Source: Candidatus Methylomirabilales bacterium (GTDB lineage: Bacteria; Methylomirabilota; Methylomirabilia; Methylomirabilales; CSP1-5). Taken from it: 45,975 nt of DNA. Both the position numbers and the translations under genes were made by a program. Below are positions 1 through 45,759 of the stretch, piece by piece; positions within the stretch are counted from its first letter, which is position 1; each line of letters starts with the position of its first letter. The notes under the pieces were generated by a model. It was not told the origin of the DNA. It worked only from the letters and a program-made list of their open reading frames with translations, and searched no databases. The stretch covers positions 1-45,975 of the forward strand of contig JBHIAH010000014.1 of assembly GCA_046758505.1 (NCBI GenBank), given 5' to 3'.

Positions 1-265
1 GCGCGAGGATCTCGGAGAGCGTCCGAAGAAGGGCCTGGGCATCTTCACATAGACCGTGAACACAAAGAAGGTGGATCGCCCGGAAGGTTTTTACCGCTTT
101 CGCGTAGAGACCTAAAACGACTGCGACGAATCCTATTTCCTTTTCCTTCAGTCGAACTTCGCTCTTGCCAGCCATCGCCAGTGCAAAGGCGAGAAGGTGG
201 TTACCGATTACCAGTCTTACCTCATACTCTGTTCCGGACAAGGCAGATTCCTCTCCCGGAAGCAT
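1..265 (-). CDS. Partial CDS running off the window start; DUF5677-like helical protein
   Basis: Not in the ORF track. Manual translation from ATG 265 (AAGGAG RBS upstream) gives MLPGEESALSG...LYAKAVKTFRAIHLLCVHGLCEDAQALLRTLSE, resembling the DUF5677 N-terminal pattern. Confidence 0.5.
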   Translation of the reverse strand, partial: MLPGEESALSGTEYEVRLVIGNHLLAFALAMAGKSEVRLKEKEIGFVAVVLGLYAKAVKTFRAIHLLCVHGLCEDAQALLRTLSEILA

Positions 266-389
266 GACAGCTCCTTTCACGGCAGAGTCAAGCAGAAACC
301 AGTATCATGGCCCCCGAATGGTCTCCAAGATTTTTCGGTAACGGAGTTCTTTGCCCCTGACAACCGGGGGCCTCATGGGAGTTAGATGT

Positions 390-1553: not shown

Positions 1554-1559
1554 CCCATT

Positions 1560-1645
1560 GGAGGGAAATTGGGTCGGAGTCGAATTTCATTACTGCCCTT
1601 GTTCGACACCCGGACCGCCTCCAGCTTGAACTTCCGGGTGGAACC
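1560..1645 (-). repeat. ~90-bp element (IS3 orfA-like stub plus CGACTCCGACCCA); second copy at 41322-41410 (+)
   Basis: CACCCGGAAGTTCAAGCTGGAGGCGGTCCGG...CGACTCCGACCCA vs CACCCGCGAGTTCAAGCTTGAGGCGGTCCGG...CGACTCCGACCCA. Confidence 0.7.
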
Positions 1646-1716
1646 ACTCTATACTAAGGATTTATTTCGCATCGAGGTTGCGGCTTGTCCGCACCAGCTA
1701 CGTGTTAGGCGCGTAA

Positions 1717-2066
1717 TCACGGCTTGCCCTTACTTTGGCGCGCCTTTCTTAGCTCATCAGTCTTCGCCGGAGCGACATAAATCGAATACAGAAACTGCCA
1801 CGTGACCTCGCGTGCGTCACGAGCTTCTTGACGCGTGACTTTGTCGAGACCGTCATCCTGTACATGTGCGCCGTAGTTTCCGAACTGTCGGATCTCGTGC
1901 GCGCTGTTCTTAAGATCCTTGGTGATGAAGCCCTCCGCATGAAGGACGTCAATCAACGTATGAAGTGTGAGCGTACTGCCCTTAGCGTCTTTTGCCTTAG
2001 GTCCAAGCTTGTCGCAAGCAACCGCCTCAAGAACACGCCGACACATCACAACTACTGCCTTGATGA
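1717..2066 (-). pseudogene. 5'-truncated DUF4145 (HEPN-like) gene
   Basis: KAVVVMCRRVLE...LIDVL...EIRQFGNYGAH is typical of DUF4145. The recognisable region starts at the left TIR of the Y1 element; the upstream frame is TIR/antisense sequence. Confidence 0.7.
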
Positions 2067-2876
2067 AAAATGGGGACAGATTTATTTTCTTGACTGCCTC
2101 TGGTTGCCAGGATAGCGTTTTCTTGGAGATCATGTCATCGGTTTGCCGCCGTCGGGAGTCTCGCGATGCCGAGGGGTCCCCGCCCAGTTGTTCCAAGCAT
2201 CCCCCATCACGTGATCCATCGGGGTAATAACCGGCAGACCATCTTCTTCCAGGGGAAAGACTACGAGCGGTTCCTAATGATCCTCACGAAGGCGAAGCAC
2301 CTGCATCCGTGTCGGCTGTACGCCTACGTGTTGATGCCGAACCACGTTCATCTCCTCCTCGAACCGGTCACCCGAGATGGGCTAGGGAAATTCATGAAGG
2401 TGCTTGCCGGGCGATATACTCGGTACATTAACAGGGAATATCGGCGGACTGGAACCCTCTGGGAAGGCCGCTTTAAGAGCAGCCCGATACAGGCGGACGC
2501 ATATCTGCTCGCATGTTGCCGCTACATCGAACTGAACCCTGTCCGTCCCAGCTTAGTCGAGGCGCCGGAGGATTATCCGTGGAGCAGTTACCGGGTACGA
2601 GCCTTTGGAGACGAATCGCGTCTCGTAGACCTCGATCCATTGTACGAGGGGCTCGGGAGTACGGCTCTGCGCCGCCAACAACGTTATAGGGAGTGGATGA
2701 TGCGCACCGGCTTGGAGACCGAGCAGCAGACGTTCCGCCAAGGGGTGCAGAGGGGGACCGTGGTCGGCTCAGACACTTTCGGGGCGAAAGTTGCTGGGAT
2801 CATTGGCCAGCCGGTGACCCGCCGCAACCGAGGCCGCCCGCGCAAGGACGCTAGAAAATAAATCTGTCCCCATTTT
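2067..2876 (+). mobile_element. Y1 HUH (RAYT-like) transposase element with perfect 24-bp terminal inverted repeats (TIRtron-like)
   Basis: AAAATGGGGACAGATTTATTTTCT at 2067-2090 and its exact reverse complement at 2853-2876 flank the transposase. Confidence 0.85.
2166..2861 (+). CDS. REP-associated tyrosine transposase-like protein (Y1_Tnp)
   Basis: HHVIHRGNNRQTIF, YVLMPNHVHLL (HUH), LWEGRF, YIELNPV (catalytic Tyr), RGRPRK C-terminus; stop codon lies inside the right TIR. Confidence 0.92.
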   Translation: MPRGPRPVVPSIPHHVIHRGNNRQTIFFQGKDYERFLMILTKAKHLHPCRLYAYVLMPNHVHLLLEPVTRDGLGKFMKVLAGRYTRYINREYRRTGTLWEGRFKSSPIQADAYLLACCRYIELNPVRPSLVEAPEDYPWSSYRVRAFGDESRLVDLDPLYEGLGSTALRRQQRYREWMMRTGLETEQQTFRQGVQRGTVVGSDTFGAKVAGIIGQPVTRRNRGRPRKDARK

Positions 2877-2910
2877 CAGTCGTCAATAATTGAACTTATC
2901 CCCTTTTCCT

Positions 2911-3042
2911 CTCTAACGACCTGCCAATCAGCGGCTCGCCTGCGCGACGTGATGGTCGGCCGGAGACGACACGGTGACCCGAAAAGCCACGGGACCGTTG
3001 ATGAGGCTCGCGCAGGCGGGCCGCTGCATCGGCGGGTTAGGC
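2911..3042 (-). other. Integron attC recombination site downstream of the MOSC gene
   Basis: Minus strand GCCTAAC-ccgccgaTGCAGCGGcccgcctgcgcga...tcgcgcaggcgaGCCGCTGAttggcaggtc-GTTAGAG: RYYYAAC/GTTRRR cores enclosing a long imperfect palindrome. Confidence 0.8.
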
Positions 3043-3084
3043 CGCGCCATCGTCGAAGAGGACGTCCTCTACGACCGCTTGGGC

Positions 3085-3978
3085 TCAGGTGAGCGCCACG
3101 CGGTCACCTGTTCGCATCGTTCCCGGCGCTTCGACCACGGCGTACACGCCCGCGCAGGGGAACTGACCGGCATCGCCGACTTGAACCCTGTTGTGCCGAG
3201 TGAGCGTTCGGAGGACGTCGGTGTCCTTGGGTAGCTCGTCTTGAGCGAGCGTCGTCATCACGCATCGCGGATCGGGCAGGGCCACGTTGAGTCGTACCGC
3301 GTCACCGATCGCGAGCTCGTGGCCGATCCAGTCGTTCTCGACGAATCCAGCTTCTTTGGTGCCGACGATCACGTTCATCCGGAACCGGCGCTGGTCAAAG
3401 CGGCTCTGGGGTTGAAGCTCGCTCAGCTGCTCGAGGGTGGACGTGGTCAGGACGGACACCGGGAACAGATCGAAGAACGAACCGACGGGCACCGGGGAAG
3501 CAAGACCGGCTTCGGCGAAGAAGGCCGAGCCAAGCTTCTGTTCGACGACCGTGTCTCGGTGGCCTGCTGGGTCTAGATCCTCAACGTCGGGGTGGTACAT
3601 GTCGATGGTGAAGTCATCCGGCGCGGCCCGCCCCAGCGTGACGTCTCGTCGGAAGCACGTTGACAGCACGCGGTCGACCGTACTGGAGTCGCTCGTCACC
3701 GACGTGCCGTCCGGCAACGAAATCCGCACTGGTGGCACCTCGCGGCCTAGTCGTGGCGGCTCGACGAAAGCTGCCTGACAGCCGAACAGGTCAGGAAAAA
3801 GCCTCACGCTCTTCGCGCTCACCACCTTGCCTGTCTCCGCATCGATGAGCGCATAGGCACGGTCACCCACGAGACCTCGCGCAGTAAACTCCGCCTGCTC
3901 GAGCCGCTCGCCCCTCATGGACTTGACCGGGAACCTCCACAGCCCGGCCACAGAGCCGACTACTCCGCTCGTCGCCAT
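3085..3978 (-). CDS. MOSC domain-containing protein (YcbX-like)
   Basis: LWRFPVKSMRGE, GLVGDRAYAL, RRFRMNVIV, PRCVMT; AAGGAGG RBS. Confidence 0.9.
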   Translation of the reverse strand: MATSGVVGSVAGLWRFPVKSMRGERLEQAEFTARGLVGDRAYALIDAETGKVVSAKSVRLFPDLFGCQAAFVEPPRLGREVPPVRISLPDGTSVTSDSSTVDRVLSTCFRRDVTLGRAAPDDFTIDMYHPDVEDLDPAGHRDTVVEQKLGSAFFAEAGLASPVPVGSFFDLFPVSVLTTSTLEQLSELQPQSRFDQRRFRMNVIVGTKEAGFVENDWIGHELAIGDAVRLNVALPDPRCVMTTLAQDELPKDTDVLRTLTRHNRVQVGDAGQFPCAGVYAVVEAPGTMRTGDRVALT

Positions 3979-4049
3979 TTGTTCCTCCTTAGCAGCTCAT
4001 TTGGTATTCGTTCTTCGTCACGGCGCGCTGGGACCAAAAATGGGGACAG

Positions 4050-4378
4050 GAGGCTGTCCGATAAAAAGGTTTAGAACGGCTGTTGGCACTCATTCATGGA
4101 CGTAAAGGGTCCGAGTTGTACCTTGGTTCTCCACATCGATTCCGTCGGAGCTTTCACAAAAGAGGAAAGGGGGCTCTTCGCTACTCTTTTAGACCGGGGC
4201 GAAACGTTTCTCTTGAAGATGAGACGGCCTTGTGAGATAGGAAGCCAACTTTCTCAGATTGTGGCCAATGCACAGGAGCAGAAATTCCCCAAGAGCCCCT
4301 GCCTGACCCCGGCAGTGGAACTGGCGAAACCCCAAGTTGGATCTAAAGTGCCCAAAGACCGGTTCCACCAAGGCACAT
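4050..4378 (-). mobile_element. IS1182-family transposase C-terminal remnant with probable element end
   Basis: VEPVFGHFRSNLGFRQFHCRG...EFLLLCIGHNLRKL (4189-4371); candidate end sequence GGCTGTCCG at ~4052. Confidence 0.75.
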
Positions 4379-7069: not shown

Positions 7070-7182
7070 AGTTTAGAGTTGAGAGTTGAGGGTTGAGGGT
7101 GCAGAGCAGGTCCCTGAGAACCGATTATCGATTGCCGCGAGAATCCGGACTTCGACCGTCACCATGAACGCTGAACCATACA

Positions 7183-11535: not shown

Positions 11536-11856
11536 TCCCTCCATTTCCCTCTGCCCGACGATCCCGGAAGGGCGAGGGAGCTGGGCCTGGACCCGGCGGA
11601 ACCCTGGTTTGCGTCCGGCCAGGGGGCACCTCCCACCGGAACGCAGTGCAGGTGGGGGATGGCCGTCCTGATGCACGAGCGAACTGTTCGGCGCGGAAGT
11701 ACCATGGTTCGCCAGACCGACCCGTGGAATTGTTCCGCCGGGGAAGACCCGATCCCCGAGCCCTTCCGGGCTTCCAAAGAGAGGCCCGGAGCAAGGGACC
11801 TGCACGTGCTGCCTGCTACCCCCGAGTCTTTCCGGACTTCCCCCCGCAATAGCAGA

Positions 11857-18695: not shown

Positions 18696-18791
18696 CGCAT
18701 CCTGCGAACCTCCCGTCGATCGTGCAATTGCCCTGACAGCCGATGACAGAAAACCGATGACCGAGAAAACCAGTCGTCGGTCATCGGTCGT

Positions 18792-19820
18792 TTAGTTGTC
18801 GAGACAGACCGTTTTCAAGAGGTCCAGCTCGTCCAAGACCTTGCCAGCCCCCAGCACCACACAGGAGAGCGGGTCCTCCGCAATGGTCATCCTGAGGTGC
18901 GTCTCCAGGCCGATGAGAGTATCCAGGCCGTGGAGGAGTGATCCCCCACCGGTCATGACGATCCCCTTCTCGGCGATATCCGCCGCCAACTCCGGAGGGG
19001 TCCGCTCCAGGGCGGTCTTCACCGCATCCACGATGGCGTAAATAGGATCGTGCAGGGCCTCCCGGATATCGCTATCGGTGACGGTAATGGTCTTGGGAAT
19101 CCCGTCCATCAGGTCTCGCCCTTTGATCTCCATCTTCCGCGGCTCATTGAAGGGATAGGCCGAGCCGGACTGGATCTTGATGCGCTCGGAACTCCGCTCC
19201 CCCACCAGCAGGTTGTACTTCCGCTTCAGGTACTGGATGATCGCTTCGTCCATCTCGTCTCCGGCGATGCGGATGGACTGGCTGTAGACGATCCCGGAGA
19301 GAGAGATCACGGCCACCTCCGTGGTCCCGCCACCGATGTCCACGATCATATTCCCCGAAGGCTCCTGGACGGGGAGTGCCGCCCCGATGGCCGCTGCCAT
19401 CGGCTCTTCAATGAGATAGACCTCTCGGGCCCCCGCCTGCTCTGCCGAGTCGCGGATCGCGCGTTTCTCTACCTGGGTAATCCCGGAGGGGACACCGATC
19501 ACGATCCGGGGCCGGACGAGCGCCTTTCGGTTGTGAATCCTGATGATGAACTGCCGGATCATCCGCTCGGTGATATCAAAGTCGGCGATAACCCCGTCTT
19601 GAAGGGGACGGACCGCAACGATGGAGGCCGGCGTCCGGCCCACCATCTCTTTGGCCTCCCTCCCCACCTTCAGGACCTGACTCGTCCCCTTCTTTACCGC
19701 CACCACCGAAGGCTCGGAGAGGACGATGCCCTTTCCACGCACGTAGATCAGCGTGTTGGCGGTCCCGAGGTCAATGGCGAGGTCGTTGGAAAACATCCCA
19801 TAGATCAAATCAAAGAGCAT
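18792..19820 (-). CDS. mreB: Rod shape-determining protein MreB
   Basis: [37 protein letters not shown]. Confidence 0.98.
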
Positions 19821-23484: not shown

Positions 23485-23670
23485 GGTACCTCCGACACAA
23501 GCGATCAGCGGTCCGCAGTCCGCTATCAGCGGCCGGAACGCTAGTAGGCAAAAACGCTGGGATGCGGGGATGCTCGAAAGCCGAAACGGGGAAGCTTATA
23601 ACCTTCACGGCCTCCTGGCTTCCTCGCCTTCTCGCCTTCTAGCTGCCTACTGCTGATAGCTGACCGCTCG

Positions 23671-24951: not shown

Positions 24952-25085
24952 CGCGCCCCTCCTGCAGTCAGCTATCAGCGGTCAGCTGTCAGCTCTGTGC
25001 TGATAGCGGAGTGCTTACGAGCTCAGAGCCAAGACTCGCTCATGGGAGCGCGGACGGCTGACTGCTGGCGGCTGACCGCTCTATT

Positions 25086-27711: not shown

Positions 27712-28048
27712 TTCATAGTTCAGGGTTCACAGTTCAGGGATGAGAGCAGAGCAATTTAGGGTTGAGGATTCAGAGTCCGTAGACGGTTCAGGGTTCAGGG
27801 TTCGAGCGGTTCAGGGATCAAGGTTTGGGGTTCAGAGTTTAAAATCCATGAACCATGAACGACTCGACTGAGCTCGTCGAAGTCCATCCACCATGAACCG
27901 TTGGTCATGAACCATGGACCCTGAACCATGAACGATTAAGCGGTCGTCGGACTTCGGCGAGGAGTTCGGCTGAGGCTCACTCGAAGCCCTCAGTCGAGCC
28001 GTCACCGGACATCGGTCGTCGAGTTCTGGCGGTCATCGGTCTGCAGCC
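27710..28048. repeat. Degenerate heptamer tandem arrays in inverted arrangement with embedded palindromic units
   Basis: (GTTCAGG/GTTCATA)n at ~27710-27840 opposed by (CCATGAA/CCTGAAC)n at ~27845-27935. Similar arrays at ~7070-7105, 18735-18790, 23500-23670, 24965-25082 and 28510-28670. Confidence 0.75.
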
Positions 28049-28050
28049 CG

Positions 28051-28386
28051 TTAGCCGCCGTAGACCTTGGCGATGAAGACCGCCAGGGTCAGCCGATCCT
28101 GGAGCTCGAGCCGGACGAACTTGAACCCATGCACGTATGACGTACCGGCGTTCCCAGGACGATCCTGCGACCAGACGACTTCAGCCTCGGCGTGGATGGC
28201 GCGGTCGCCCAGCGAGACCATGAGGTCGAGCGGCGTCCCCGGCGGGAGGAGCTCCGGCAGCTCCACCATCAGGCCCCCTTCGCTCAGATTGCGAATCCGA
28301 CCCGGCGCTTCCGGCCCCAGGCGCCGGTAGGTCACGGACCCGTCATAGGAGTAACGGCGATGCCGCCTGCGCTCATCCTTCTCCAT
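28051..28386 (-). CDS. PilZ domain protein
   Basis: ERRRHRR (RxxxR) and RNLSEGG (N/DxSxxG) motifs. Confidence 0.88.
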   Translation of the reverse strand: MEKDERRRHRRYSYDGSVTYRRLGPEAPGRIRNLSEGGLMVELPELLPPGTPLDLMVSLGDRAIHAEAEVVWSQDRPGNAGTSYVHGFKFVRLELQDRLTLAVFIAKVYGG

Positions 28387-28670
28387 TGCCTCTGCCTCCC
28401 CAAGGGACCTCCCCGCGACGCCATTCGGGACCCACCTGGTCCCTAAACTGCTCCTCCTCTCGCGAGGTCGGACCGGAGCAAGACCCATGCCATCACCAAG
28501 ACAATCTGGCTCATAGTTAATGGTTCATGGTTCATGGCTCGATGACCGACCGCACGAAAGTGACTGGTCGCCGGTCGTTTTCATCAATCACCATTCACCA
28601 ACTGTGAACCATGAACCAGCTTTACGGTCGTCGGTCACCGGTCGTCTGTTGTCGGTCGTCGGTCGTCGGT

Positions 28671-29513
28671 TCATTCCTGCTGCGCCCGGCGCCAGAGGGC
28701 CTGGAATAGGTCGGGTGGCACGCTGACCATGGCAGTCACCGCCTTGATCCCGCCCACGACCATGCGGCCCCGCAGGGTCTCGTAGATGAAACCGTAGGGT
28801 CCTCCATCGTACAGACGATCCTGGTGAGAGCAGAGGGCAGTCACAGGAAAATCCCGGTCCGCCAGCTTTCGATGGGTCATGGTTTCAACGATCAGCCCTT
28901 CTGAGGTGCCATCATAAAGCTGTCCCCCATGCGAACACAACGTGAGGACCGACCCCCCCCGTGCTGCGACCCGGAGTCCGGTCAGGGTTTCGTAGATCCG
29001 ACCGTCTCCGCCACCATCAAAGAGGCCATCCCGGTGCGTGGCCAAGGTCAGCACCTCATCTTCACGCCTCCCCACCTCCCGCCCCGCCAGGGTCTCGTAG
29101 ACGGCCGGGTAATCGCCCGCATCGTAGAGCGATTCCCGGAAGGGACACAGCGCGTGAATCGTCCCCGGGCGCGCTGCGACCTCCCGCCCCGTCAGGGTCT
29201 CGTAGATCCGGTGAGAGCCGCCGGCATCATAGAGGACACCTCGGTGTGAGCAGAGGCTCAGGACCCAGTCGCCCCGGTCAGCGACCTGCTCGTCCGCGAG
29301 CGTATCATAGACGCGGGCATACCGGCCCCCATCGTACAGCCGCCCCTCATGAACGCAAAGCGTGAGCACCAGGCTCCCCCGGCGGCAGACCTCGCGAAGC
29401 TCCCCGCCGTGAACGCAGCAGATCTTATCCACGACCCCCACCACCAATCCCGCCTCGGTCCACCCGGAAGTCTCGGGATCAACGATATCGCCACCTGCCC
29501 CCTTCACCCGCAT
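28671..29513 (-). CDS. 35-aa-repeat protein, probable beta-propeller
   Basis: Six tandem V.xLCxHxGxLYDGG...IYETLxGxxVAxR repeats. Confidence 0.75.
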   Translation of the reverse strand: MRVKGAGGDIVDPETSGWTEAGLVVGVVDKICCVHGGELREVCRRGSLVLTLCVHEGRLYDGGRYARVYDTLADEQVADRGDWVLSLCSHRGVLYDAGGSHRIYETLTGREVAARPGTIHALCPFRESLYDAGDYPAVYETLAGREVGRREDEVLTLATHRDGLFDGGGDGRIYETLTGLRVAARGGSVLTLCSHGGQLYDGTSEGLIVETMTHRKLADRDFPVTALCSHQDRLYDGGPYGFIYETLRGRMVVGGIKAVTAMVSVPPDLFQALWRRAQQE

Positions 29514-36226: not shown

Positions 36227-36646
36227 ATGAATTGGCACGAGCGACTTCGATTGACGCTGAAACGGTCGCCGATCCTGTGGGCGGTCCCCCTCGGCATTGT
36301 CGTGGTCATCGCCCTGATCATCGCGATCAACCGGGGCCCCACCGACATGAAGACCGCATTGGAGAAATTGGAGAAAAAGGAAGAGCGGGTCAAGGCGCAG
36401 ATCGTCGACAGCTGCAAGCAGATTCGCCTCGGCATGCCGAAAGCAGAGCTGCTTACGATGATGCCGAAGCCGGTCGGCACCATCTCGTACAGGCGACAGC
36501 GCCAGGTGAAAGAAAAGCTCCTCTTCCCGTCCCGAGCCGGCGCCTCGACGCCTCCCACGGTCGTGGTCGACCAGCGGACCGGGCACGTCGAAGAAGTCGT
36601 CTGCGACGCGAACTATCGCCTCCCCCCCAAACCCCCCAAACCCTAA
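36227..36646 (+). CDS. Hypothetical membrane-anchored protein
   Basis: AAGGAG RBS, single TM helix, QIRLGM motif. Confidence 0.7.
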   Translation: MNWHERLRLTLKRSPILWAVPLGIVVVIALIIAINRGPTDMKTALEKLEKKEERVKAQIVDSCKQIRLGMPKAELLTMMPKPVGTISYRRQRQVKEKLLFPSRAGASTPPTVVVDQRTGHVEEVVCDANYRLPPKPPKP

Positions 36647-36701
36647 CCCCTCCCCCACTCTTCTTTTCCGAAGGGCCCCCTTCGGCGCCACGCACCGAAC
36701 A

Positions 36702-36726
36702 TGAGTCAAGAAGAGACCCGACCCCT
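36702..36726 (-). repeat. 25-bp inverted repeat, left boundary of the right island
   Basis: Reverse complement AGGGGTCGGGTCTCTTCTTGACTCA; partner at 45735-45759 differs by 1 base. Confidence 0.85.
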
Positions 36727-36791
36727 CAACCTTCCTCAACTCTCCTCCTCTCCACCTGACCCCCGCCAGATTCCTTCTGAACCTAAACTCC

Positions 36792-36820
36792 TTGACATAC
36801 GCGCGCGAACCCTGTAACTT
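36792..36820 (+). promoter_or_regulatory. Putative sigma70 promoter reading into the island
   Basis: TTGACA-N17-TAACTT. Confidence 0.55.
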
Positions 36821-37052
36821 GCCTTAAATATTGCGCCATCGCTTTGCAGGCATAGAAGCTTAAATTAAGCACCGTAATCCCCGGATTTCCCGAAGCACCG
36901 GGCGGGTCGTGCTCCCCCTCCGGTGCTTTGTGTTTTGAAGGCAGATGTTAAACGGTGGTGCGTGGCGAGAATCGGTTAGCAAGAGAGTTAACCCATCGCC
37001 CCGGCCAACACACTAAGCGGGTTGCCACTAAGCAGTCCAACGGATCTGATGC

Positions 37053-37245
37053 AATGCCAGAAGAAGCGAAACCGCAGGACAACATTGACCGCATTCTCAA
37101 ACACCTGAAGAACGGTTCCCCCGCGGCACGGCTCGTCAACGCCCACCGTACGGCGGATGCCGGCAATCCTACGGAAGCCATGAAGGCCGTCCTCAAAGAA
37201 CGGCTTGCACAAGTGAGAGCCGAAATTGACAAGCCCGAGGCTTAG
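37053..37245 (+). CDS. Small helical hypothetical protein overlapping the ATPase start
   Basis: MPEEAKPQDNIDRILKHLK...; 20-bp overlap with the next gene. Confidence 0.6.
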
Positions 37246-39748
37246 GTCGCTTTCAGTTAAGGGCTTCCGCGCCTTTGGCGGCGTCGAACAAAGCCTCAAC
37301 TTGCCGTCGGACATCGCCGTTGTCTGGGGACCTAACAGCAAGGGAAAAACCAGTTTGGCCGAGGCTTTCGAGTTTCTGGCCACCGGCCGCATCACCAGGC
37401 GCGAGCTGATGGCGAGCAGCCAGGACGAATTCGCCGACGCGCTCCGCAACGCTCATCTTACTGACAGTGAGGAAGTCTATGTTGCCGCCCGCATCATAGC
37501 CGCTGACGGTACGCCGCACGAGATCAAGCGAGTTCTCACTGGTGACTTCGGTAAGAAACACGATTGTACCTCCCGCCTGGAAATCGACGGCGCAACCGCC
37601 ACAGAAGCTGGCCTGGCCAAGTTCGGTATCTCGCTCTCCCAACCGCCTCTCCGGGCGCCGGTCCTCGCGCAGCACACTCTTGCCTATATCTTCTCCGTCC
37701 GCCCGCAGGACCGTGCGACCTATTTCAAGACCCTGCTCGAAGTCACCGACCTAGACAAACTCCGCAGTGACATTGCGGCGCTGGCGGATGATCTCAAACC
37801 GCCCAATGATCCATTGTTCACGAAGTTCACCACCTGCGCGGTCGTCACGGTCATGAAACCCGTCCTTGCCAGTCTCCTGGTCACTATCCCCGATCCCCTA
37901 ACGCTCGCATCCAGGCTGGAAGACGCGGCAAGCGCGCTCATCGAAGGCGCCGGGGAAAAGGTTCCTGACACGCCGGGCGAACGGCTTGCGGCCATCGGGA
38001 AGATTCTGGCTGACCGCCGAACCAAGACCTTCCCGGTCAGAGCTTTCGAACGCAAGGAACTCGCCGGATGGAACCCGCCAACTTCTGATATCTGGACCCG
38101 TCTTGATACCTATCTTGGCGAACGCAAAAAAGTCGATGAAGAGACGCGCCAGCTCACGGCGCTATTTGACGAGGCCTTGAAGCTCCCCGCCATTTCCGCT
38201 ATGACAGAGGCTGTGGACTGTCCTCTGTGCGCGACAGAATCAGCTCTGACCCCGGCGCGCGTGCAGATCATCCGTCGACACGTCGAGGACATAAGGGACT
38301 TCAAAACCGCCGAAACAGCCGCAAAATCAGCTCTGGCACAGCTTTCCGCCTCGGCTGATGCTTTGACCAACGCTGCCGAAGCCGCCCTGCCCAAATACCT
38401 CAAGACTACAGCCGCCGAGCGCCGCCAGATAGGCTTCACGCTCGCCCGCATTCGCGAACTCCTCGGCGACGGCGCTGGGGAGCTTCTCGATTCCTGGCTC
38501 GCCCGGATCAGGCCCCTTGCTCGCGCCGGGGCCGCGCTGCGCCGAGGCGCCATGCAAGCCTACGTACTTGTTGAGAAACAGGCAGCAGACCACGCAGCCG
38601 CCCTTGATCCCGAAAAGCTGCGCCCCGTCTTTGCCGCCCTCTCCATGCTTCGCACCAGCTTCGCCTCCGCGATTGACGCATACAAAGTGCCGGAATCGTC
38701 CCTCCGCACGGCTCTCAACGAAGTCCTAGATGCCCAGTCGGACACCGCTGGGTGGCAGGATTTTCTCGATGTTGCAGGGCAGCCGGACAAACTTCGCAAC
38801 GCTTTGATCGACCGCAAGGCCCATACTACCGTGGAGGACGAACTCGCGGCTGCGCTCAAGCAGATTGACCGCGCCAAGGAACAGGTTCTTGACGACAAGT
38901 TTTCCGATTACAGTGGTCTGATACAGAAATGGTGGGAGCGATTGCGGCCTGACGAGCCGACGTTCTTTTCCGCTGTGTAGCCCCGTAGGGGGGCGAAACG
39001 CACGATTGACTTCAAGGCAGGACTTTCGGCCAGCCCCGACCGGTCCGCTCCAAAGGTGCGCGACGTGATCGCCGTCTTCAGCCACTCCCAGCTTCAGTGT
39101 TTGGGGCTCGCCATGTTTCTCGCCCGCGCTGAGCATGAGGGCTGCAGCTTTATCGTCCTTGATGACCCGGTGCTTTCCAGCGACGAGGACTACCGGGTGC
39201 ACTTCAATGCGACCGTACTCACAGAACTCCTTAGGCTGCCGATACAGGTCGTCGTCCTTACCCAGGACCACGCCACATGGGAGGAGCTTGAAACCCGTTA
39301 CCGACATCTCGGAATTTCCAACGCCCAGCTTTACATCGAAACTCCCGCTGAAGGGACCATCATCGAAAACACAAGCGATGCGCTTCTCGCCAAGATTAAC
39401 CGCGCCAAGTCCCTTGTGCGGGGCGGTCATCCTGACTCGCGGAAGGAGTGTGGTATCCAGTTACGCGACGCCGGAGAACGCTTCTGCAAGGAAATGCTGG
39501 TCAACGACCGCCGCGACAAAGGAGATAGCGCCGCCTCCCTCAGCGACTATGACGGAAAAACCCTCGAATGGCTATGCCCGCATGTCGATCCCCTCCTGGA
39601 ACACGACCCGTCTCATTCCGGCAAGCTCGAAGTATTCAAGAACACTGTCAATGGTGCGTGTCACGACAACACTCCGCCGGGCACTGGGGAGATGATACAT
39701 GCCTGCGGCGAAATCCGTCATTTTGTGAAAGACTATCTCGGGCGTTAG
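37226..39748 (+). pseudogene. Rad50/SMC-like ABC ATPase with zinc hook and C-terminal HEPN-like domain (RloC-like), split by in-frame TAG at 38978-38980
   Basis: Walker A GPNSKGKT and CPLC hook; after the TAG the same frame continues with FSHSQ, IVLDDPV (Walker B), LTQD, RDAGE...NGACHD. Confidence 0.75.
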
Positions 39749-39869
39749 CGCACTGATAGCGGCATGCAACACCCAGAAAACCCGGGATGGTGCGCATGGC
39801 TTGGGGGCGCCCATGAGGAGGATCGTTCGGTGCCAGAAATAAGACTTCCATTGCCGCGCAAATTGCCCA

Positions 39870-40361
39870 ATGGTTGTATTTATTAGCTCAACCTATCGAG
39901 ATTTGGCTGAGTATCGAGAGGTTATCCGACTGGCACTGGAGACCAGTGGATATACATATCGGGGAATGGAGCACTTTCCGCCGCAAGACGAGCCACCACT
40001 GGATGTTTGCCTGCGGGCATTAGAGGAGTGTGACGTTTATGTAGGAATTGTAGGAGGGCTATATGGTTCCTCTCCACCAGGAAGAGTATTGTCCTACACG
40101 GAGCTTGAATACAGACATGCCACGAGTCTTGGCATCTATAGAATCATGATACTATTGGATGACAATGCAAGGGTCAGGGCGGGATACGTGGAACAAGATC
40201 CAGAACGTATTGAAAGACTTAATCGATTCCGCGCGCGCATTGTGAATAATCACACGGCACAAACATTTCGGGATGGTCATGAAGCAGCATGGAAAATCCT
40301 AGCAGCGCTCCGGATCCACGAAGTTCGACTCCGCGAGCAGGAAGGAAACAATCAGACATGA
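39870..40361 (+). CDS. DUF4062 domain protein
   Basis: VFISSTYRDL..YR, MEHF, CDVYVGIVG..YGS, SYTELEY..A. Confidence 0.88.
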   Translation: MVVFISSTYRDLAEYREVIRLALETSGYTYRGMEHFPPQDEPPLDVCLRALEECDVYVGIVGGLYGSSPPGRVLSYTELEYRHATSLGIYRIMILLDDNARVRAGYVEQDPERIERLNRFRARIVNNHTAQTFRDGHEAAWKILAALRIHEVRLREQEGNNQT

Positions 40362-41206
40362 GGGCCTCGACTAAAGTTTTTGAACTTATTCCATCCGTTC
40401 AAACGCGGATCGAAAAGCCTGCCCCCATGGCCCTCCTGCCGGCACTGCCTGTGCGTCTTAAGGGCAATGAGGGCCCAACCCAATACGCAGTAATTGATAC
40501 TGGGGCCCAAATATCGTTCCTTTCCTCTATTGTAGCGCAGAATCTAGCAATATCGAGAGAGACTATCGGGACTAAGATCGTCACCATGACCTCGGGTGAA
40601 TCCATACGCTGTGAAATTGTTAAAGCAGTACTGATACTTTGCGATGAAAGATTCTCCCCTTGGCTACGTTTCGAGGGTGTGCCGATGGCCCTTGTGCCAG
40701 GCAGTCAGGCACCTACCGGGGAAGGTCATCTCGTTCTGGGCTATGACTCCTGCTTGTCGAATCTCAAGCTGACTATTGATTATCCACGAAAAAAACTCAG
40801 GGTTTCTGCCCCAAGCAAGTTTCTGATTTCGGCGATTTCAAAGAAACACGAGTACGTCCCAAGCAGGATCAAGGAAGGCGACAAACTCATAAAGCTCGGT
40901 AGCTATAATGCAGCATTGGCGGTAATCGCAGCAGGCATTGAGGAAGCGGTTCTGTCAAACTTAGGGACGCGCCCAGAATCGGCAACGCTAGGTCAACTTC
41001 GCAGCCAACTTGCCGAAGAGGATCTTCCTGAAAGATTCAGAATCTATCTTGATAGTATTGCCCGTCTTCGAAACAGAGCAGTACATGGTGAGAAAGGGGA
41101 ATCCATAACGATGAGGGAGGCGAAAGATGCCCTTCGGGATGCAAAGGCGTTCGTTACTTACCTCAGAGAATTGGGGGATAAAGGTGAACCTGGTGGACAC
41201 GGATGA
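40358..41206 (+). CDS. Retropepsin-like aspartic protease fused to HEPN/DUF4145-like domain
   Basis: AVIDTGAQIS and LVLGYD protease motifs; C-terminal AGIEE...RLRNRAVHG (RxxxxH); ATGA overlap with the DUF4062 gene. Confidence 0.75.
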   Translation: MRASTKVFELIPSVQTRIEKPAPMALLPALPVRLKGNEGPTQYAVIDTGAQISFLSSIVAQNLAISRETIGTKIVTMTSGESIRCEIVKAVLILCDERFSPWLRFEGVPMALVPGSQAPTGEGHLVLGYDSCLSNLKLTIDYPRKKLRVSAPSKFLISAISKKHEYVPSRIKEGDKLIKLGSYNAALAVIAAGIEEAVLSNLGTRPESATLGQLRSQLAEEDLPERFRIYLDSIARLRNRAVHGEKGESITMREAKDALRDAKAFVTYLRELGDKGEPGGHG

Positions 41207-41215
41207 CGCTCAGGC

Positions 41216-41295
41216 TGAGCTACCCCCGATTTGACGGACACCTCAGAAGAGAGGGTGAGGGTTGAGAGTCGAGGGTTGAGGGCCTTGGGCCAAAG
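41216..41295 (+). repeat. 80-bp element beginning with an IS3 IR-like sequence; second copy at 45505-45584
   Basis: Ungapped alignment 67/80 identical by hand count; start resembles the IS3 end TGCTACCCCCGGTTTGACGGACACCTC. Confidence 0.8.
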
Positions 41296-41416
41296 CTCTC
41301 CGGATGACACACACCGAAGGCACTTCACCCGCGAGTTCAAGCTTGAGGCGGTCCGGCTTCTTCGTGCCAGGTCAGCGGAGAAACCGACTCCGACCCAGAT
41401 TTCCCCAATGTAAAAC

Positions 41417-41983
41417 ATGGATTGGCTCACTTTCGTCGCTCAAATCGTCAACACCCTAGTGTGGCCTGCCACGATTACCATTGCCGTCCTGCTGCTGCGG
41501 AAGCCAATTGGGCAACTGATCCAAACCCTGCGGTTTCTTCGTTATAGGGATCTGAGTCTGGAGTTCGGGAAGAAATTAGAGCAACTAGAAGCCACCGCCG
41601 ACCAGGCACAGCTTCCGGCCGCAGAGACTGCACCGGAGAGGGCCCCCCGTCTGCATGAAGAGAGCCTTAGTGAGTATATAGAGCGACTTGCCTCCATTTC
41701 CCCTAGGGCAGCAATAGCTGAGGCGTGGCGACATCTCGAACTTGCTTTGCGAGAAGTTGTCACACGTGCGGGTCAACGCGAACCCCGCTCGCTACGAGGC
41801 CTTTGGCGCTTTTTTGAGACGGAGCAGACTCTTCCGGCAGAGGCAGTTTCGATGTTGCAGGATCTCTCCGCCCTGCGAAATCAAGCAGTGCACGCGAGTG
41901 ACTTCGATCTGGCGCCCGAACAAGCTGCTGAATTTGGTCGCATAGCGGAAAGGATTATCGCGGTTCTGCGGCCCGAGGACTAG
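41417..41983 (+). CDS. N-terminal TM protein with C-terminal HEPN-like domain
   Basis: MDWLTFVAQIVNTLVWP..LLRKPI; SPRAAIAEAW..LE; ALRNQAVH. Confidence 0.75.
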   Translation: MDWLTFVAQIVNTLVWPATITIAVLLLRKPIGQLIQTLRFLRYRDLSLEFGKKLEQLEATADQAQLPAAETAPERAPRLHEESLSEYIERLASISPRAAIAEAWRHLELALREVVTRAGQREPRSLRGLWRFFETEQTLPAEAVSMLQDLSALRNQAVHASDFDLAPEQAAEFGRIAERIIAVLRPED

Positions 41984-42062
41984 CCAGGACTTGGCGTGAA
42001 AATTGAGTCCGTGAAGGGAAAAGGTGTCAGGAGGTGCTAGCCCCGATTTCGTGGACACGTAG

Positions 42063-42923
42063 TTAGGGGCAGGGGGTTGCTTCAAACGTCACGGGACTGC
42101 GATAGCCCAGGGACTGGTGCAGCCGCTGGCGATTGTAGAAGATTTCGATGAACTCGAACACCTCTGCCTGGGCCTCCTCCCGCGTGCGATAGTCACGATC
42201 ATGGACCAGTTCGTTCTTCAGCGTACTGAAGAAGCTCTCCACCCGCGCATTATCGGCGCACCGACCCTTGCGGCTCATGCTGGCTGTGAGCCCCCGCTGC
42301 TCGAGCAGCTGGCGGTAGGCCTGGCTCGCATACTGCGGCCCCTGGTCCGTGTGATGAATCAGTCCCGGCAACGGCCGGCGCCGGGCCACGGCCATGGTGA
42401 GCGCGTGGACCGCGAGGTGCCGATCCGGCTTGGCACCCATGGCCCAGCCGACGATCCGCCGCGAATACTGGTCCAGGACCACCGCCAGGTAGAGCCAGCC
42501 CGCGCGGGTGGCAATGGTTGTCAGGTCCCCGGCCCAGACCTGATCCCGGGCCGCGACCGGGCCGACGGCCGGCAGGCGGTTGGGCGCCGGGGGCGGGAGC
42601 TGATGGTGCTCGACCAGGGTGCGGAAGCGCCGCACGCGCCGGGCGGTGATCCCGTGGAGCCGGCGCAGCCGCGCCACGCGGTGCCGGCCGCACCGGATCC
42701 CCGCGGCGTGCAGGGCATGCCACAGCTTCACGGCGCCGTACCGCTCCTTGGTCTGGGCGTGCAGCTCCCGGATCGCGCCCAGCAGCTGGGCATTGGCCGC
42801 ACTCCGGGCGCTCGCGGGCCGCGTCCGCCAGGCGTAGTAGCCGCTCCGACTCACCCCGAGGACCCGACAGAGCCGACCCACGGGGTGGCCCGCCGGCGCC
42901 GTGCGGATGAAGGCGTATCTCAT
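42063..42923 (-). CDS. IS3 transposase OrfB (rve, DDE)
   Basis: W.GDLT, YLAVVLD.YSR, HTDQG.QY, DNA.VESFF.TLK.E, FYNRQR.H. Confidence 0.95.
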   Translation of the reverse strand: MRYAFIRTAPAGHPVGRLCRVLGVSRSGYYAWRTRPASARSAANAQLLGAIRELHAQTKERYGAVKLWHALHAAGIRCGRHRVARLRRLHGITARRVRRFRTLVEHHQLPPPAPNRLPAVGPVAARDQVWAGDLTTIATRAGWLYLAVVLDQYSRRIVGWAMGAKPDRHLAVHALTMAVARRRPLPGLIHHTDQGPQYASQAYRQLLEQRGLTASMSRKGRCADNARVESFFSTLKNELVHDRDYRTREEAQAEVFEFIEIFYNRQRLHQSLGYRSPVTFEATPCP

Positions 42924-43213
42924 CCGGACTCCCTGGCAAAGAACCTGGCGGCTTTTTTTAAAATGTCCCGCTCCTCCCGCAGCCGCGCCACCTCGCGGCG
43001 CAGGCGGGCGATCTCATCCTCCGGCGTGGGCCGCTTCCCGGAGCCGGGGAACGCCGCCTCGCCGTGGGCTTCCACCTGGGTTGCCCACTTGTACAGATGG
43101 TTGCGGCGGAGGCCCAGTTCCCGAGCGACGGCGGCCGCCGGGCGCCCTGAGCTCTTCCAGAGCCGTAGGGCTTCGCGCTTGAACTCCTGCGTAAAGCGTT
43201 GCCGTTTGCCCAT
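42920..43213 (-). CDS. IS3 transposase OrfA (HTH)
   Basis: RFTQEFKREA, VARELG, LREERDILKKA. Confidence 0.93.
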   Translation of the reverse strand: MGKRQRFTQEFKREALRLWKSSGRPAAAVARELGLRRNHLYKWATQVEAHGEAAFPGSGKRPTPEDEIARLRREVARLREERDILKKAARFFARESG

Positions 43214-43391
43214 GCGACACCTCCAGGTCTATTGTCCCCATTTTGAGGTGTCCGTCAAACCGGGGGTAGCACCGGACCCTTTTTAGTTGCTTGTTCAGGT
43301 TCGGGGTCAGGTAACATGAAAAACGGGGGCAACCTCCAGTAGAATGGTGGGGCGCAACGATCCCACCTCTTCTCGAAAGGAGGCAACCCCC

Positions 43392-43817
43392 ATGCTGTAC
43401 GTAGGCATAGATTACCACAAGCGGTACGCCCAGGTGAATGCCCTTGACGAGCAGGGCCAGCAACGGGCCGCCGCCCGGCTCCCCAACGACTCGCGCGCGC
43501 TCGAGGCCTTCTTCCGCGCCCTCGGCGAACCCTGCCAGGCCGTCTTGGAAGCGGGGTGGAACTGGGGCCTGATGTACGACTGGCTGGAGCAGATTGCCAC
43601 AGTCACCGCGGTCCAGCTCGCGCATCCCTATCGCACCCGAGCCATCGCCGCGGCCCAGGTGAAGACCGATGCCATCGACGCCCGAACGCTCGCCCAGCTC
43701 TTGCGTGCGGGCCTCATCCGCCGGGCACACATCCCGAGTGCGGACACCCGCCGGCTGCGCGAGCTCGTGCGGCAGCGGCTGGTGAAAGGTACCGGACACC
43801 TTTTGAGATGTAACTGA
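43392..43817 (+). pseudogene. IS110-family transposase, 3'-truncated
   Basis: MLYVGIDYHK, VLEAG, KTDAIDARTLA, LRELVRQR; recognisable sequence ends at the palindrome starting 43785. Confidence 0.88.
43785..43803. repeat. 19-bp hairpin direct repeat AAAGGTACCGGACACCTTT; second copy at 44716-44734
   Basis: Exact direct repeat; AAAGGT/ACCTTT stem. Confidence 0.85.
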
Positions 43818-43967
43818 CTGATTTTCTTGGATCTGATTTTCAATTCCTGGGGAGCGCGGGCGAGAGATGAAGAAACCGTATCCATTTGTCGACGATCTCC
43901 CTTCCGCCGCACAGCAGCGTAAAGGCACAGGACACCATCAGAATCGTTAGACCTCGGGTGTAGTTTA

Positions 43968-44699
43968 ATGCGAATTCCCCTGACCTGCATGCAATGCTTT
44001 CAAGAACTGGGACAGCCATCCCGTGAGGTCTACCAGGCAGAGCTGCAGGATAACGGTCTTTACACGATGGAATGCTCACGCGGCCACCAAGGCGTCACAT
44101 GCTTGCAGGAGCAAAAATTCGAGGTCCTATTTGACATCGGGGCCAACGCCATAGTCGATGGCTATTATCGAGAAGCGGTTTCCTCTTTTTCCGCGTGCTT
44201 GGAGCGGTTTTACGAGTTCTATATTTCGGTGATAGCCATCAAGAATGGCGTCGATGAAGGGCAGTTTCTTGAGTGTTGGAGAGGAGTTGAAAATCAGTCC
44301 GAGAGGCAGCTGGGTGCCTTTGTATTTGTTTACTTGCTTGAGGAGAAATGTTTGCCAGCCCTTCTGAGCACGAAACGCGTTGCTTTTAGGAACAACGTAA
44401 TCCACAAAGCTAAGATCCCAACCAAGAACGAAGCAATCGCCTACGGAAGCGAAGTTCTTAATCTGGTAGCTCCAGTACTTCGAGATTTAAAGGATCGACA
44501 TTCCGAACACGTCCAAAAGGCTGTCACGCGGCATGTGCGTAGGACCAGACAGGCAATCGAAGGCACACCCCACATTTCTTTTATGAGCATACCTACTACA
44601 ATGAGCATTTCTCGGGCGAATAGTGAGCCTCAGCCGAGCCTGGATGACACCCTTGTTCGTCTACAACAACAAAGGGGCAGGGGCCGTTTCTTTCCTTGA
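43968..44699 (+). CDS. Zn-ribbon plus HEPN-like hypothetical protein
   Basis: CMQC...CSRGH N-terminus; YYREAVSSF..CLE and FRNNVIH (RxxxxH). Confidence 0.7.
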   Translation: MRIPLTCMQCFQELGQPSREVYQAELQDNGLYTMECSRGHQGVTCLQEQKFEVLFDIGANAIVDGYYREAVSSFSACLERFYEFYISVIAIKNGVDEGQFLECWRGVENQSERQLGAFVFVYLLEEKCLPALLSTKRVAFRNNVIHKAKIPTKNEAIAYGSEVLNLVAPVLRDLKDRHSEHVQKAVTRHVRRTRQAIEGTPHISFMSIPTTMSISRANSEPQPSLDDTLVRLQQQRGRGRFFP

Positions 44700-44948
44700 A
44701 GAGGACGTGGAGGGAAAAGGTACCGGACACCTTTAGAAGGATGAGGGGTCAAGGAGCATGAAGGATCAGGTCTGCTCTTGATTCATGCTTCGCCTTGCTA
44801 CTCTTGCTATGACTCGGCTCTGCCGCCACATTCTCCCATCCCTACTACCACTACCTTCCGATCAGTCCCCCGACGGTTGAAGAGATGGGAATGCGCCATC
44901 AGAGATGAGCCAAGCGGAGACTTGACCCCATCGGACGTGGATTAGGTT

Positions 44949-45488
44949 ATGGACGTCCAGGCTTTGTTGGAATTTCTTATTAGAGAGGGTTCGGCCTGGG
45001 TTCAGGCGCAGAGAGATCTTTACCGTCCAGACGGCAGACCCCTGACGACGCAAGAGAAGCAGAATTTTGGCAGCTTTTTTGAGATCGAAGCGCTGGATTC
45101 CGCGCGTGTGAGGAAGGTCCCGGTAATTCACAACCCAGACTTCTATGGTCAGTTAGCCCAGCTTGGCGTGCACATCCCGTTGGATTTTAGCGAGATGGCT
45201 GGGATCACATTTGCAGACACCATTCTGATTTCTGTGGGGCGAACTCCACCGGGTGCGCCGCTTGACTCGCTGCTCTTTCATGAGCTAGTTCATGTCGTGC
45301 AATATGAGACGCTGGGGGTGCCACAGTTTGTACACCGATACGTTCATGGGTGGGCCCAAAATGGATTCCGCTACGATAGGATACCCCTGGAACGTGACGC
45401 GTACGAACTCCAGGGCAGTTACGAGTCGCAACCACAACGAGCCTTCTCTGTCATGGCAGAGGTTCGTCGCCGCCTCGGGGTCTTATGA
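44949..45488 (+). CDS. HExxH metallopeptidase-like (DUF4157-like) protein
   Basis: GITFADTI, LLFHELVHVVQY, PLERDAY. Confidence 0.75.
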   Translation: MDVQALLEFLIREGSAWVQAQRDLYRPDGRPLTTQEKQNFGSFFEIEALDSARVRKVPVIHNPDFYGQLAQLGVHIPLDFSEMAGITFADTILISVGRTPPGAPLDSLLFHELVHVVQYETLGVPQFVHRYVHGWAQNGFRYDRIPLERDAYELQGSYESQPQRAFSVMAEVRRRLGVL

Positions 45489-45734
45489 GAAACGAGGATG
45501 GTCCTGAGTTACTCCTGATTTGACGAACCCCTCAAGACAGAGGATGAGGGTTGAGAGTCGAGGATTGAGGGCCTTAGGTCAACGCATCACGTTTGTGGGC
45601 GGCCCGGCACAGGTCGACTGCAGACGCTAGGCCTATAATTTCGGAACATGGCGATGAGAAGACGCACCCTAGCAATATTGTTTCCGTTATTCGTGACGAC
45701 ACTTCAGCCTGCTTGGGGTGAAATTCAAGGCCAA

Positions 45735-45759
45735 AGGGGTCAGGTCTCTTCTTGACTCA
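45735..45759 (+). repeat. 25-bp inverted repeat, right boundary of the right island
   Basis: AGGGGTCAGGTCTCTTCTTGACTCA; degenerate third copy at 44761-44785. Confidence 0.85.

Follow-up and report, generated by a model that had tools for sequence, protein, structure and literature searches.

Solo TIRtron ends at a replacement hotspot in a Candidatus Methylomirabilales genome

The 25-bp repeats and the island between them

The DNA analysed here, referred to as the window, is the whole 45,975-bp contig C14 (JBHIAH010000014.1) of the 2.99-Mb genome bin of a Candidatus Methylomirabilales bacterium (GCA_046758505.1, here G000). Close to its right end an island of about 9 kb lies between two copies of a 25-bp repeat, one at 36702-36726 on the minus strand and one at 45735-45759 on the plus strand, which form an inverted pair with a single mismatch and both read outward. 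This pair had been described in a sequence-only reading of the window, and it exceeds what shuffling produces, since the longest comparable inverted repeat was 17-23 nt in 30 triplet-shuffled windows. Together, the results below demonstrate that the 25-mers are lone ends of a known but little-studied class of single-stranded DNA transposon, the TIRtron, and that the island is a replacement hotspot, with constant core flanks and unrelated content in each relative.

The left 25-mer starts 55 bp past the last conserved gene (36227-36646), which agrees with the earlier placement of this copy directly beyond the last core-like gene. On the right, the end of C14 shares a 55-nt overlap with contig C47, and core homology restarts at C47:176-208, approximately 340-370 bp beyond the right 25-mer. 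The motif GGGGWSAS stands at the outer tip of both copies, exact in the right one and with 1 mismatch in the left one, A being usual at the last position in the family. Inspection of the unfolded 25-mer revealed no GTAG and no self-complementarity, the hallmarks sought of repetitive extragenic palindromes (REPs). The pair is not confined to this island: 16 sites within 6 mismatches of the 25-mer are spread over 9 contigs, and a strict form of the pattern has 12 copies compared to 0 in a reversed control. The island, its borders and a complete TIRtron elsewhere in the window comprise the following features (matrix scores are explained below; ORF, open reading frame; TIR, terminal inverted repeat).

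2067-2876 (+): complete short-form TIRtron, a perfect 24-bp repeat (2067-2090/2853-2876) around a 231-aa Y1 protein (2166-2861); its family differs from that of the island ends
36227-36646 (+): last conserved gene, which anchors the hotspot on the left; protein of 139 aa without a Pfam hit
36702-36726 (-): left solo TIRtron end, inner side to the core gene and outer tip to the island; matrix score 24.2 bits
36727-36764 (-): outer-flank stutter, that is, short microduplications with a 10-nt partial tip copy, as read from the sequence
37054-37245 (+): 63-aa ORF overlapping the start of the ATPase gene; no family hit
37226-39748 (+): SMC-like ABC ATPase gene of an 840-aa family; in-frame stop at 38978-38980, CPLC and C-terminal N-x3-H motifs
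39870-40361 (+): DUF4062 protein (Pfam E 2e-26)
40358-41206 (+): fusion of an aspartyl-protease-like domain with HEPN; small family with 5 other proteins
41219-41358 (no strand): IS3 end remnant with a piece of orfA
41385-41406 (-): TIR-like motif of a different kind, recurring at 1565-1590; at both sites a gene begins directly outside it
41417-41983 (+): membrane-anchored HEPN-like protein (Pfam HEPN E 0.004, below cut-off) with an RNQAVH motif
42019-43284 (no strand): complete IS3 (42033-43273) in a palindrome equal to the end of the C6 TIRtron; 3-bp duplication; the match in genome G014 spans exactly 42033-43273
43344-43784 (+): truncated IS110 transposase gene (5' part), interrupted exactly where the next palindrome starts
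43785-43878 (+): repeat unit made up of a TIR-like palindrome and about 70 bp; in 10 other genomes its left edge lies within 6 bases of the same position
43968-44699 (+): protein of 243 aa that carries a HEPN-like RNNVIH motif and has no family hit
44716-44752 (+): second palindrome with a partial tip
44761-44930 (no strand): two ends of the 25-mer family that face inward, about 170 bp apart; interior with no clear match to full elements
44949-45488 (+): 179-aa HExxH protein, weak eCIS_core hit
45504-45585 (+): repeat, 84% identical, of the IS3-end region 41215-41296
45735-45759 (+): solo TIRtron end on the right, its inner side turned to the C47 core block; matrix score 38.9 bits
45770-45790 (+): worn end of the C25-element type, nested just inner to the right 25-mer

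Variants of the repeat had also been reported at 11 further positions. A motif is present at all 11, but these are not one family and fall into at least four kinds. The positions 44761 (plus) and 44917-44930 (minus) belong to the 25-mer family and make up the inward pair, which is likely an internally deleted mini-TIRtron; 36755, 43303 and 44745 are short 25-mer tips; and 45768 is a C25-type end. The palindrome at the end of the C6 element is resembled by 42019/43272 (a single palindrome split by the IS3), 43785 and 44716, and 41385 is the further type that recurs at 1565.

All 7 non-transposase ORFs from 37054 to 45488 lie on the plus strand, and no Y1 gene was found between the two 25-mers. 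The cargo had been described as mostly HEPN/DUF4062 genes; it contains one DUF4062 gene, two Pfam HEPN-type hits and more HEPN-like motifs seen by eye, alongside other genes. No tyrosine integrase was detected among the 47 window ORFs scanned, as had been noted, but the island does hold a complete IS3 and a cut IS110. The cargo had no match in plasmids or in 250 genomes of the phylum, a sample that is not proof of absence, and the island ATPase was not found in these 250 genomes. Because PADLOC returned only partial ATPase-domain hits (LmuB, PbeC and PDC-S06) and none for the other cargo, a defence role of the island cargo is likely rather than shown. The ATPase family as a whole is widespread (838-840 aa, 394 hits among the candidates scored, best 85%) and has a small upstream ORF. 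Its CPLC and N-x3-H motifs suggest a putative RloC-like anticodon nuclease, and the gene is possibly an unnamed RloC-like defence protein, the G000 copy being broken by one stop. The protease-HEPN fusion is rare, with 5 homologues at 43-49% identity, and overlaps the DUF4062 gene, with which it forms a candidate two-gene defence module.

Several other observations concern the repeats and DNA around the island. Units of the 43785-43878 type measure approximately 75-120 bp, consist of a palindrome and a tail, and have a sharp left edge in 10 other Methylomirabilota-level genomes; they also occur at G000 C18:37719 and C19:34676 and at L219:16080-17180, as two direct copies 1 kb apart around an attC-like site and a small gene in G005, and as two copies 3.9 kb apart in G007. 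Ends of the IS3 type were considered at 42033-43273 and 41219 in the window and at C19:34878 and C20:26, and this IS3 type possibly targets TIRtron palindromes as IS1397 targets REPs. At the contig break, 45888-45975 and C47:1-140 carry promoter-like sequence followed by a hairpin- and T-rich stretch that could be a small RNA. A second variable region occupies positions 1-4100 and continues into contig C19 through a 55-nt overlap. It contains a DUF4062 protein with an N-terminal PADLOC PDC-S60 hit (E 1.5e-51), a DUF4145 protein, the short-form TIRtron, a C31-type end and, beside that TIRtron and behind a MOSC gene, a 132-bp attC-like site (2911-3042); its C19 part has an IS3 end and a 43785-type palindrome.

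TIRtron elements and their Y1 enzymes

The TIRtron class and its enzyme, TIRYT, were named by Di Nocera, De Gregorio and Rocco in 2013 (PMC3733652) and correspond to TnpA-Y1 subclass 2.1 of Quentin et al. 2018 (PMC6006769). TIRYTs are widespread. G000 encodes 12 Y1 transposases (L001-L012), each gene lying between its own inverted repeats, which amounts to 12 different complete TIRtrons. Their left repeats often end in TTGAC, at the position that a -35 box of the transposase gene would take.

When one genome per species was scanned, the 25-mer pattern turned up in 87 stretches, of which many belong to deltaproteobacterial-type genomes. The exact motif flanks a Y1 gene in 10 loci of that scan, GGGG first and reading into the gene, so that its assignment to a TIR-flanked Y1 (HUH) element is borne out. 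The full element carrying the motif is approximately 1,036 bp long and encodes a 320-aa TIRYT. The repeat pair was recovered automatically at 47 of 75 loci found through the protein (element span 1,031-1,093 bp), many of the misses stemming from the search window used. These proteins are 320-322 aa long, have HYH and YxHxNP motifs and match the C-terminal domain of DnaA (E 1e-14 to 1e-15), and their match to NF047646 falls below the model cut-off. Four pairs of elements, 97-99.8% identical, lie in unrelated flanks, with identity stopping within 15 nt of GGGG; outside them are A-rich bases and no obvious target duplication. Since near-identical elements with sharp ends occur in unrelated flanks, the TIRtron is mobile as a unit. 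Flank comparison among 90 sites revealed inner flanks common to 36 pairs and an outer flank common to 1 pair, which is one record present twice.

The protein encoded at 2166-2861 had been proposed as the driver of the island, and we rejected it as the matching enzyme. In a quick tree, for which a careful search is unfinished and the placement of long branches unsure, it is a distant, short-form long branch (41% identity over only 144 aa, no helix-turn-helix hit), and its element has its own perfect 24-bp repeat; the motif instead travels with the 320-aa, DnaA_C-type clade. The match once seen between the island repeats and the TIR of the 2166 element holds as a family-level likeness, but covers only 17 identities in 27 columns with a gap. 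The 320-aa clade groups in this tree with the G000 proteins at C9:5937-6890 (44%, the closest relative in the assembly) and on C25 (39%). We infer that the acting enzyme is a long-form TIRYT (about 320 aa, DnaA_C-type), for example that at C9:5937-6890, or a copy that is unassembled or lost. Complete elements with a 25-mer-type end were found in the same-genus genomes G006, G011 and G012; the long-form TIRYTs whose own ends match the motif lie at G006 C64:11720-12676, on G011 C158 and on G012 C79. All 8 genomes of the genus with a match to the long-form enzyme have pattern hits, compared to none in 4 genomes without a match.

The hotspot in relatives and the distribution of solo ends

The anchor gene 36227-36646 and the synteny upstream of it are kept in 6 of 13 same-genus genomes, and in these 6 relatives the left core gene is followed by unrelated content; a metagenome scan for the anchor gene gave no match. 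The right core block on C47 consists of a HIT-like gene and a clpB-like block (names from inspection). Both flanks lie on one contig in G006 and G007, approximately 1.1 kb and 6.3 kb apart, respectively, and in G005 the interval exceeds 4.6 kb. None of these three alleles matches the window cargo. The island had been viewed as a variable locus bordered by the motifs, and the different genes in each relative confirm this; its left border in relatives is also the same as in the window. Viewed by eye, the alleles of G005 and G007 consist of small genes strung together, interspersed with pieces that resemble attC and attI. Repeated attI-like and promoter-like pieces in the relatives' alleles lie at L021:11070-11110 and 12960 and at L023:3430-3390 and 1000-950, and no full integron integrase was found in the genomes carrying these alleles.

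Four read runs of one study, each possibly the source of the bin, were inspected for turnover among strains; the lower island depth and the one contig break at 36726 have other possible causes and are not counted as evidence. The depth of the island contig was 19.1, 26.5, 28.2 and 17.6 compared to 26.2, 36.4, 36.5 and 18.8 for adjacent core, and in 3 runs the island was within or near the spread of other core contigs. The assembly of run X3 breaks exactly at 36726, although the 30-mer, if repeated elsewhere, would interrupt it there in any case; that of X1 breaks at 36670, and those of X2 and X4 have no break there.

To place the ends relative to conserved and variable DNA, we used G005 as comparator (2.63 of about 2.8 Mb, median 77% identity), so that a few gaps scored as variable may be missing data; the gene calls are home-made and under-call foreign genes. 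After 2 spurious rows of 99 were dropped, 97 end-like sites remained. The own ends of the 12 complete elements were set aside (28 rows, including a few neighbours), leaving 69 solo sites. One of these lies in a conserved short gap, one in a core gene and 67 in variable gaps or at contig ends. Counted per gap, a solo end is present in 1 of 617 conserved gaps compared to 19 of 287 variable gaps of the interior type, and in answer to the concern that such motifs might be equally frequent in core intergenic DNA, they are nearly absent from it. Control heptamer repeats behaved differently, with 61 in conserved and 27 in variable gaps (Fisher p = 9e-8 against the solo ends). A control repeat of up to 457 bp had 12 of 22 copies in conserved or interior gaps below 1.2 kb, compared to 6 of 69 for the solo ends. 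With a matrix built solely from elements found through their proteins, 29 hits scored at least 14 bits, none of them in core genes or conserved gaps and none in reversed sequence; the hit at 37973, inside the ATPase gene, is probably chance. A loose census of motifs in the alleles gave about 1.1-1.4 per kb in G000, G005 and G007 compared to 0.1-0.2 in core, and carries little weight because the patterns were partly picked after viewing those sequences, which makes it circular.

The two control repeats have positions of their own in the window. The long one (approximately 457 bp at most) is found at 11596-11673 and 21 other places in G000 (for example C29:4963-5419) as well as in G006. The heptamers (148 pattern hits genome-wide) are low-complexity repeats within conserved intergenic DNA, at 7075-7106, 18735-18797, 23639-23668, 24970-25006 and 27722-28672. 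Gaps rich in TIRs at C9:21300-27700, C6:17000-26700, C1:1-2950 and C131 contain, by eye, putative toxin-antitoxin pairs of nucleotidyltransferase-HEPN, HicB-, BrnT- and RelE-like types.

At the border itself, the third-best matrix site in the 2.63 Mb of G005 (15.7 bits) is the left border, in the same orientation as in the window and overlapping the stop codon of the anchor gene. In five relatives a worn end overlaps or adjoins this stop codon: in addition to G005 these are G011, G006, G004 and G003, with chance estimates of 9e-5, 5e-4, 9e-4 and 0.017, respectively; G007 has no left-border end. G004 and G005 match up to the tip and diverge inside it. On the right, G007 carries a near-exact end of another TIRtron family about 60 bp inside the border, its inner side to the core, and G006 has no clear end. 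In G007 an attI-like piece directly adjoins a palindromic TIR-like motif; in G005 the two are 385 bp apart. Elsewhere, loci L050 and L094 are 97.6% identical over 3 kb and differ in the gene that two direct ends flank, the breaks lying 6 and 7 nt beyond the tips. The outer end is abutted by tandem duplications at 48 of 263 sites compared to 11 and 5 at control offsets; the partial tip copies stop at +6 to +8 in 38 of 51 cases, and the duplicated piece usually begins 4-11 nt outside. This clustering of duplications at the GGGGTCA tip predicts a nick site there. The difference between L271 and L272 was considered as a one-sided replacement and rejected, being one of stutter length. In L053, an Aminicenantes contig, three direct end copies with about 35-40 nt lie 2.3-3.0 kb apart, each preceding a different co-directional gene.

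Interpretation and comparison with known systems

The proposal that ties these results together is that solo TIRtron ends act as nick-and-rejoin anchors of a swap hotspot, with TIRYT supplied in trans; it is plausible but unproven, and we hold it tentatively, a little short of an even balance. The related enzyme TnpA-REP nicks single-stranded DNA in vitro between C and T or C and A, forms a 5'-phosphotyrosine and transfers it to an attacking 3'-OH (PMC8266576). By analogy, TIRYT would nick a solo end at the GGGGTCA tip and keep the 5'-phosphotyrosine on the inner side, which a free 3'-OH would then attack. Rejoining to the end's own, slightly extended flank would produce the stutter, and rejoining to other DNA would replace the sequence outside. 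In a bolder form, TIRYTs would run an integrase-free gene acquisition in many phyla: nickable solo ends would ligate foreign single-stranded DNA outside them, the enzyme staying bound through 5'-phosphotyrosine at the GGGGTCA tip, and a core-adjacent end would become a long-lived, programmed hotspot that samples defence and toxin-antitoxin genes. This stronger claim we consider unlikely. Serial capture by an HUH enzyme, as originally suggested, would be one source of these joints, for which pieces of IS3, IS110 and integron type offer alternatives.

A number of observations weigh against the anchor proposal. The G000 assembly has no exact-match enzyme (best 44%), and G003 has 3 pattern hits despite no enzyme match. 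A sharp outer break is expected for any transposon end, homology would stop at a stop codon regardless, and the left-border site in relatives is probably a single inherited event. Nearby solo pairs in relatives are mostly direct, and the geometry per gap in G000 is outward in 6, direct in 5 and inward in 2; outward pairs as a rule were rejected, as a 33:7 excess of outward over inward among non-independent pairs shrinks to 6:2 per gap and is not repeated in relatives. Ends near a core edge in 11 of 19 gaps, compared to 6.7 expected, are a small excess, and reuse of sites between G005 and G000 (3 of 8 placed sites compared to 44 of 390 gaps) is weak, falling without this locus to 2 of 7, one of them chosen by eye. 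Not every breakpoint coincides with an end: the third in L050/L094 lies elsewhere, as does one in L046/L096, and L271/L272 differ by stutter alone. Finally, an empty allele joining 36726 to 45735, which the earlier reading had proposed to look for, was not among the junctions listed from the reads.

These points leave room for a passive pile-up, in which an ordinary hotspot turns over by homologous recombination of its flanks and by unrelated mobile elements, and the ends are debris with no role in joining. Hotspots of this kind are well described (PMC5635113, PMC4033161 and PMC10250203). At core borders of G000 the inner side is turned to the core in 11 cases and to cargo in 10, so that no bias of the inner side toward core DNA exists; 268 of 287 variable gaps have no solo end; IS3, IS110 and attC/attI-like pieces occupy the same locus; and the short G006, G011 and G004 alleles carry variable genes without a further TIR-like motif in the stretches examined. 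What this explanation does not readily accommodate is an end kept at one border across species of about 77% nucleotide identity, the divergence of G004 and G005 inside the tip and the breaks of L050/L094 at two tips, the different distribution of the 457-bp control repeat, and a stutter indicating repeated local events at tips. We regard passive accumulation as a serious alternative, though somewhat improbable.

A further alternative treats the TIR palindromes as landing pads, which draw IS3 and IS110 elements, and the repeats as sources of short homologies, so that those transposases and host recombination swap the cargo. Landing is shown for at least one event, as the IS3 at 42033-43273 sits in the middle of a palindrome identical to the C6-element end with a 3-bp duplication. 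Moreover, TIR-like half-palindromes directly adjoin 3 of the 4 genomic ends of this IS3 type, direct mini-elements of about 280 bp occur in L050/L094, and REP targeting is known for IS3- and IS110-family elements (PMC1525189). However, the border 25-mers are not palindromic and have no IS alongside, stutter also occurs without any IS, and recombination between direct copies deletes or amplifies, leaving unexplained new sequence that starts exactly at the tip. We find this quite unlikely, and it can overlap with both passive accumulation and the anchor proposal. A single 9-kb element that moved as a block, with one 25-mer at its left end and the other at its right, is very improbable and was rejected: although a near-identical inverted pair stands close to both borders and island depth is about 70-95% of adjacent core depth in the four runs, the motif reads inward in complete elements and outward in both island copies, placing the island outside both ends, no Y1 gene lies between them, the genome contains 12 copies of the family, the 250 phylum genomes yielded no cargo DNA, and relatives have other content behind the same border.

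If the anchor proposal is true, solo ends would explain one class of integrase-free hotspots and would provide both a sequence tag for defence and toxin-antitoxin cargo and a new site-specific single-strand ligase. If the ends are passive, the locus would be merely another decayed TIRtron cluster in an ordinary hotspot. The locus makes the question testable, as it points to an enzyme clade, a substrate of 24 nt and a predicted nick zone, which is either +6 to +8 of the tip or 4-11 nt beyond it.

Compared to TIRtrons as described, the elements here agree in having GGGGWSAS-type TIRs around a Y1 HUH gene with a C-terminal, DnaA_C-type helix-turn-helix, and in repeat copies dispersed singly, as dimers and in clusters. 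The available parts of PMC3733652 and PMC6006769 give no role for solo ends, which are tied here to variable DNA, a hotspot border and duplications. Near-identical elements at unrelated sites are a further difference, as is an island pair that faces outward and encloses no TIRYT gene. In the literature searched, which covered few subscription journals, PMC3733652 and PMC6006769 were the only papers found on TIRYTs or TIRtrons. No function, activity or assay for a TIRYT was found, nor, in work linking RAYT or HUH enzymes to gene capture, cassettes, breakpoints or islands, any account of such a role for solo ends.

Ordinary intergenic space is where REPs commonly lie, in contrast to the solo ends, which avoid conserved gaps. 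REPtrons, which go with REP and BIME repeats, have an enzyme of the same superfamily, TnpA-REP (RAYT; PMC8266576 and PMC5581495), but the 25-mer has no GTAG tag and is not a palindrome in itself, and the complete element here moves as a unit. In one-ended capture, ISCR elements use an HUH enzyme to mobilise adjacent DNA and have unlike ori and ter ends. Relative to IS91/ISCR, the transposase here is of another class, the ends are symmetrical, and the variable DNA of the locus lies outside them.

The likeness to integrons and integrase-less attC clusters consists in co-oriented small genes and the attC-/attI-like pieces of relatives' alleles. The island blocks differ in being multi-gene or truncated, with joints of several kinds. 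No genome of 5 scored above the cut-off of NF011946/PRK15417, which we take to be the integron integrase model; a 115-aa open frame at C23:32125 of G000 matches the C-terminal part of it. A genome-wide attC scan gave 6 hits compared to 8 in the control, none convincing in the island, and missed the by-eye sites in relatives. The earlier picture of an integron-like array, in the sense of uniform cassettes, is not supported; since the cargo comes from IS pieces, integron-type cassettes and defence-type genes, the locus would, under the anchor proposal, be an anchored swap site and not an ordered cassette array.

The IS3 insertion into a palindrome with a 3-bp duplication resembles the REP-targeting elements IS1397, ISKpn1 and IS621 (PMC1525189). 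With replacement flexible islands and core defence hotspots, the locus shares fixed core flanks, unrelated content per relative and defence-type cargo (PMC4033161, PMC5635113 and PMC10250203), and it differs in that a transposon end, fused to the stop codon of a core gene or next to it, marks the border. Beyond these systems, the locus contributes a border retained across species, a genome-wide contrast backed by controls and a prediction of the nick zone.

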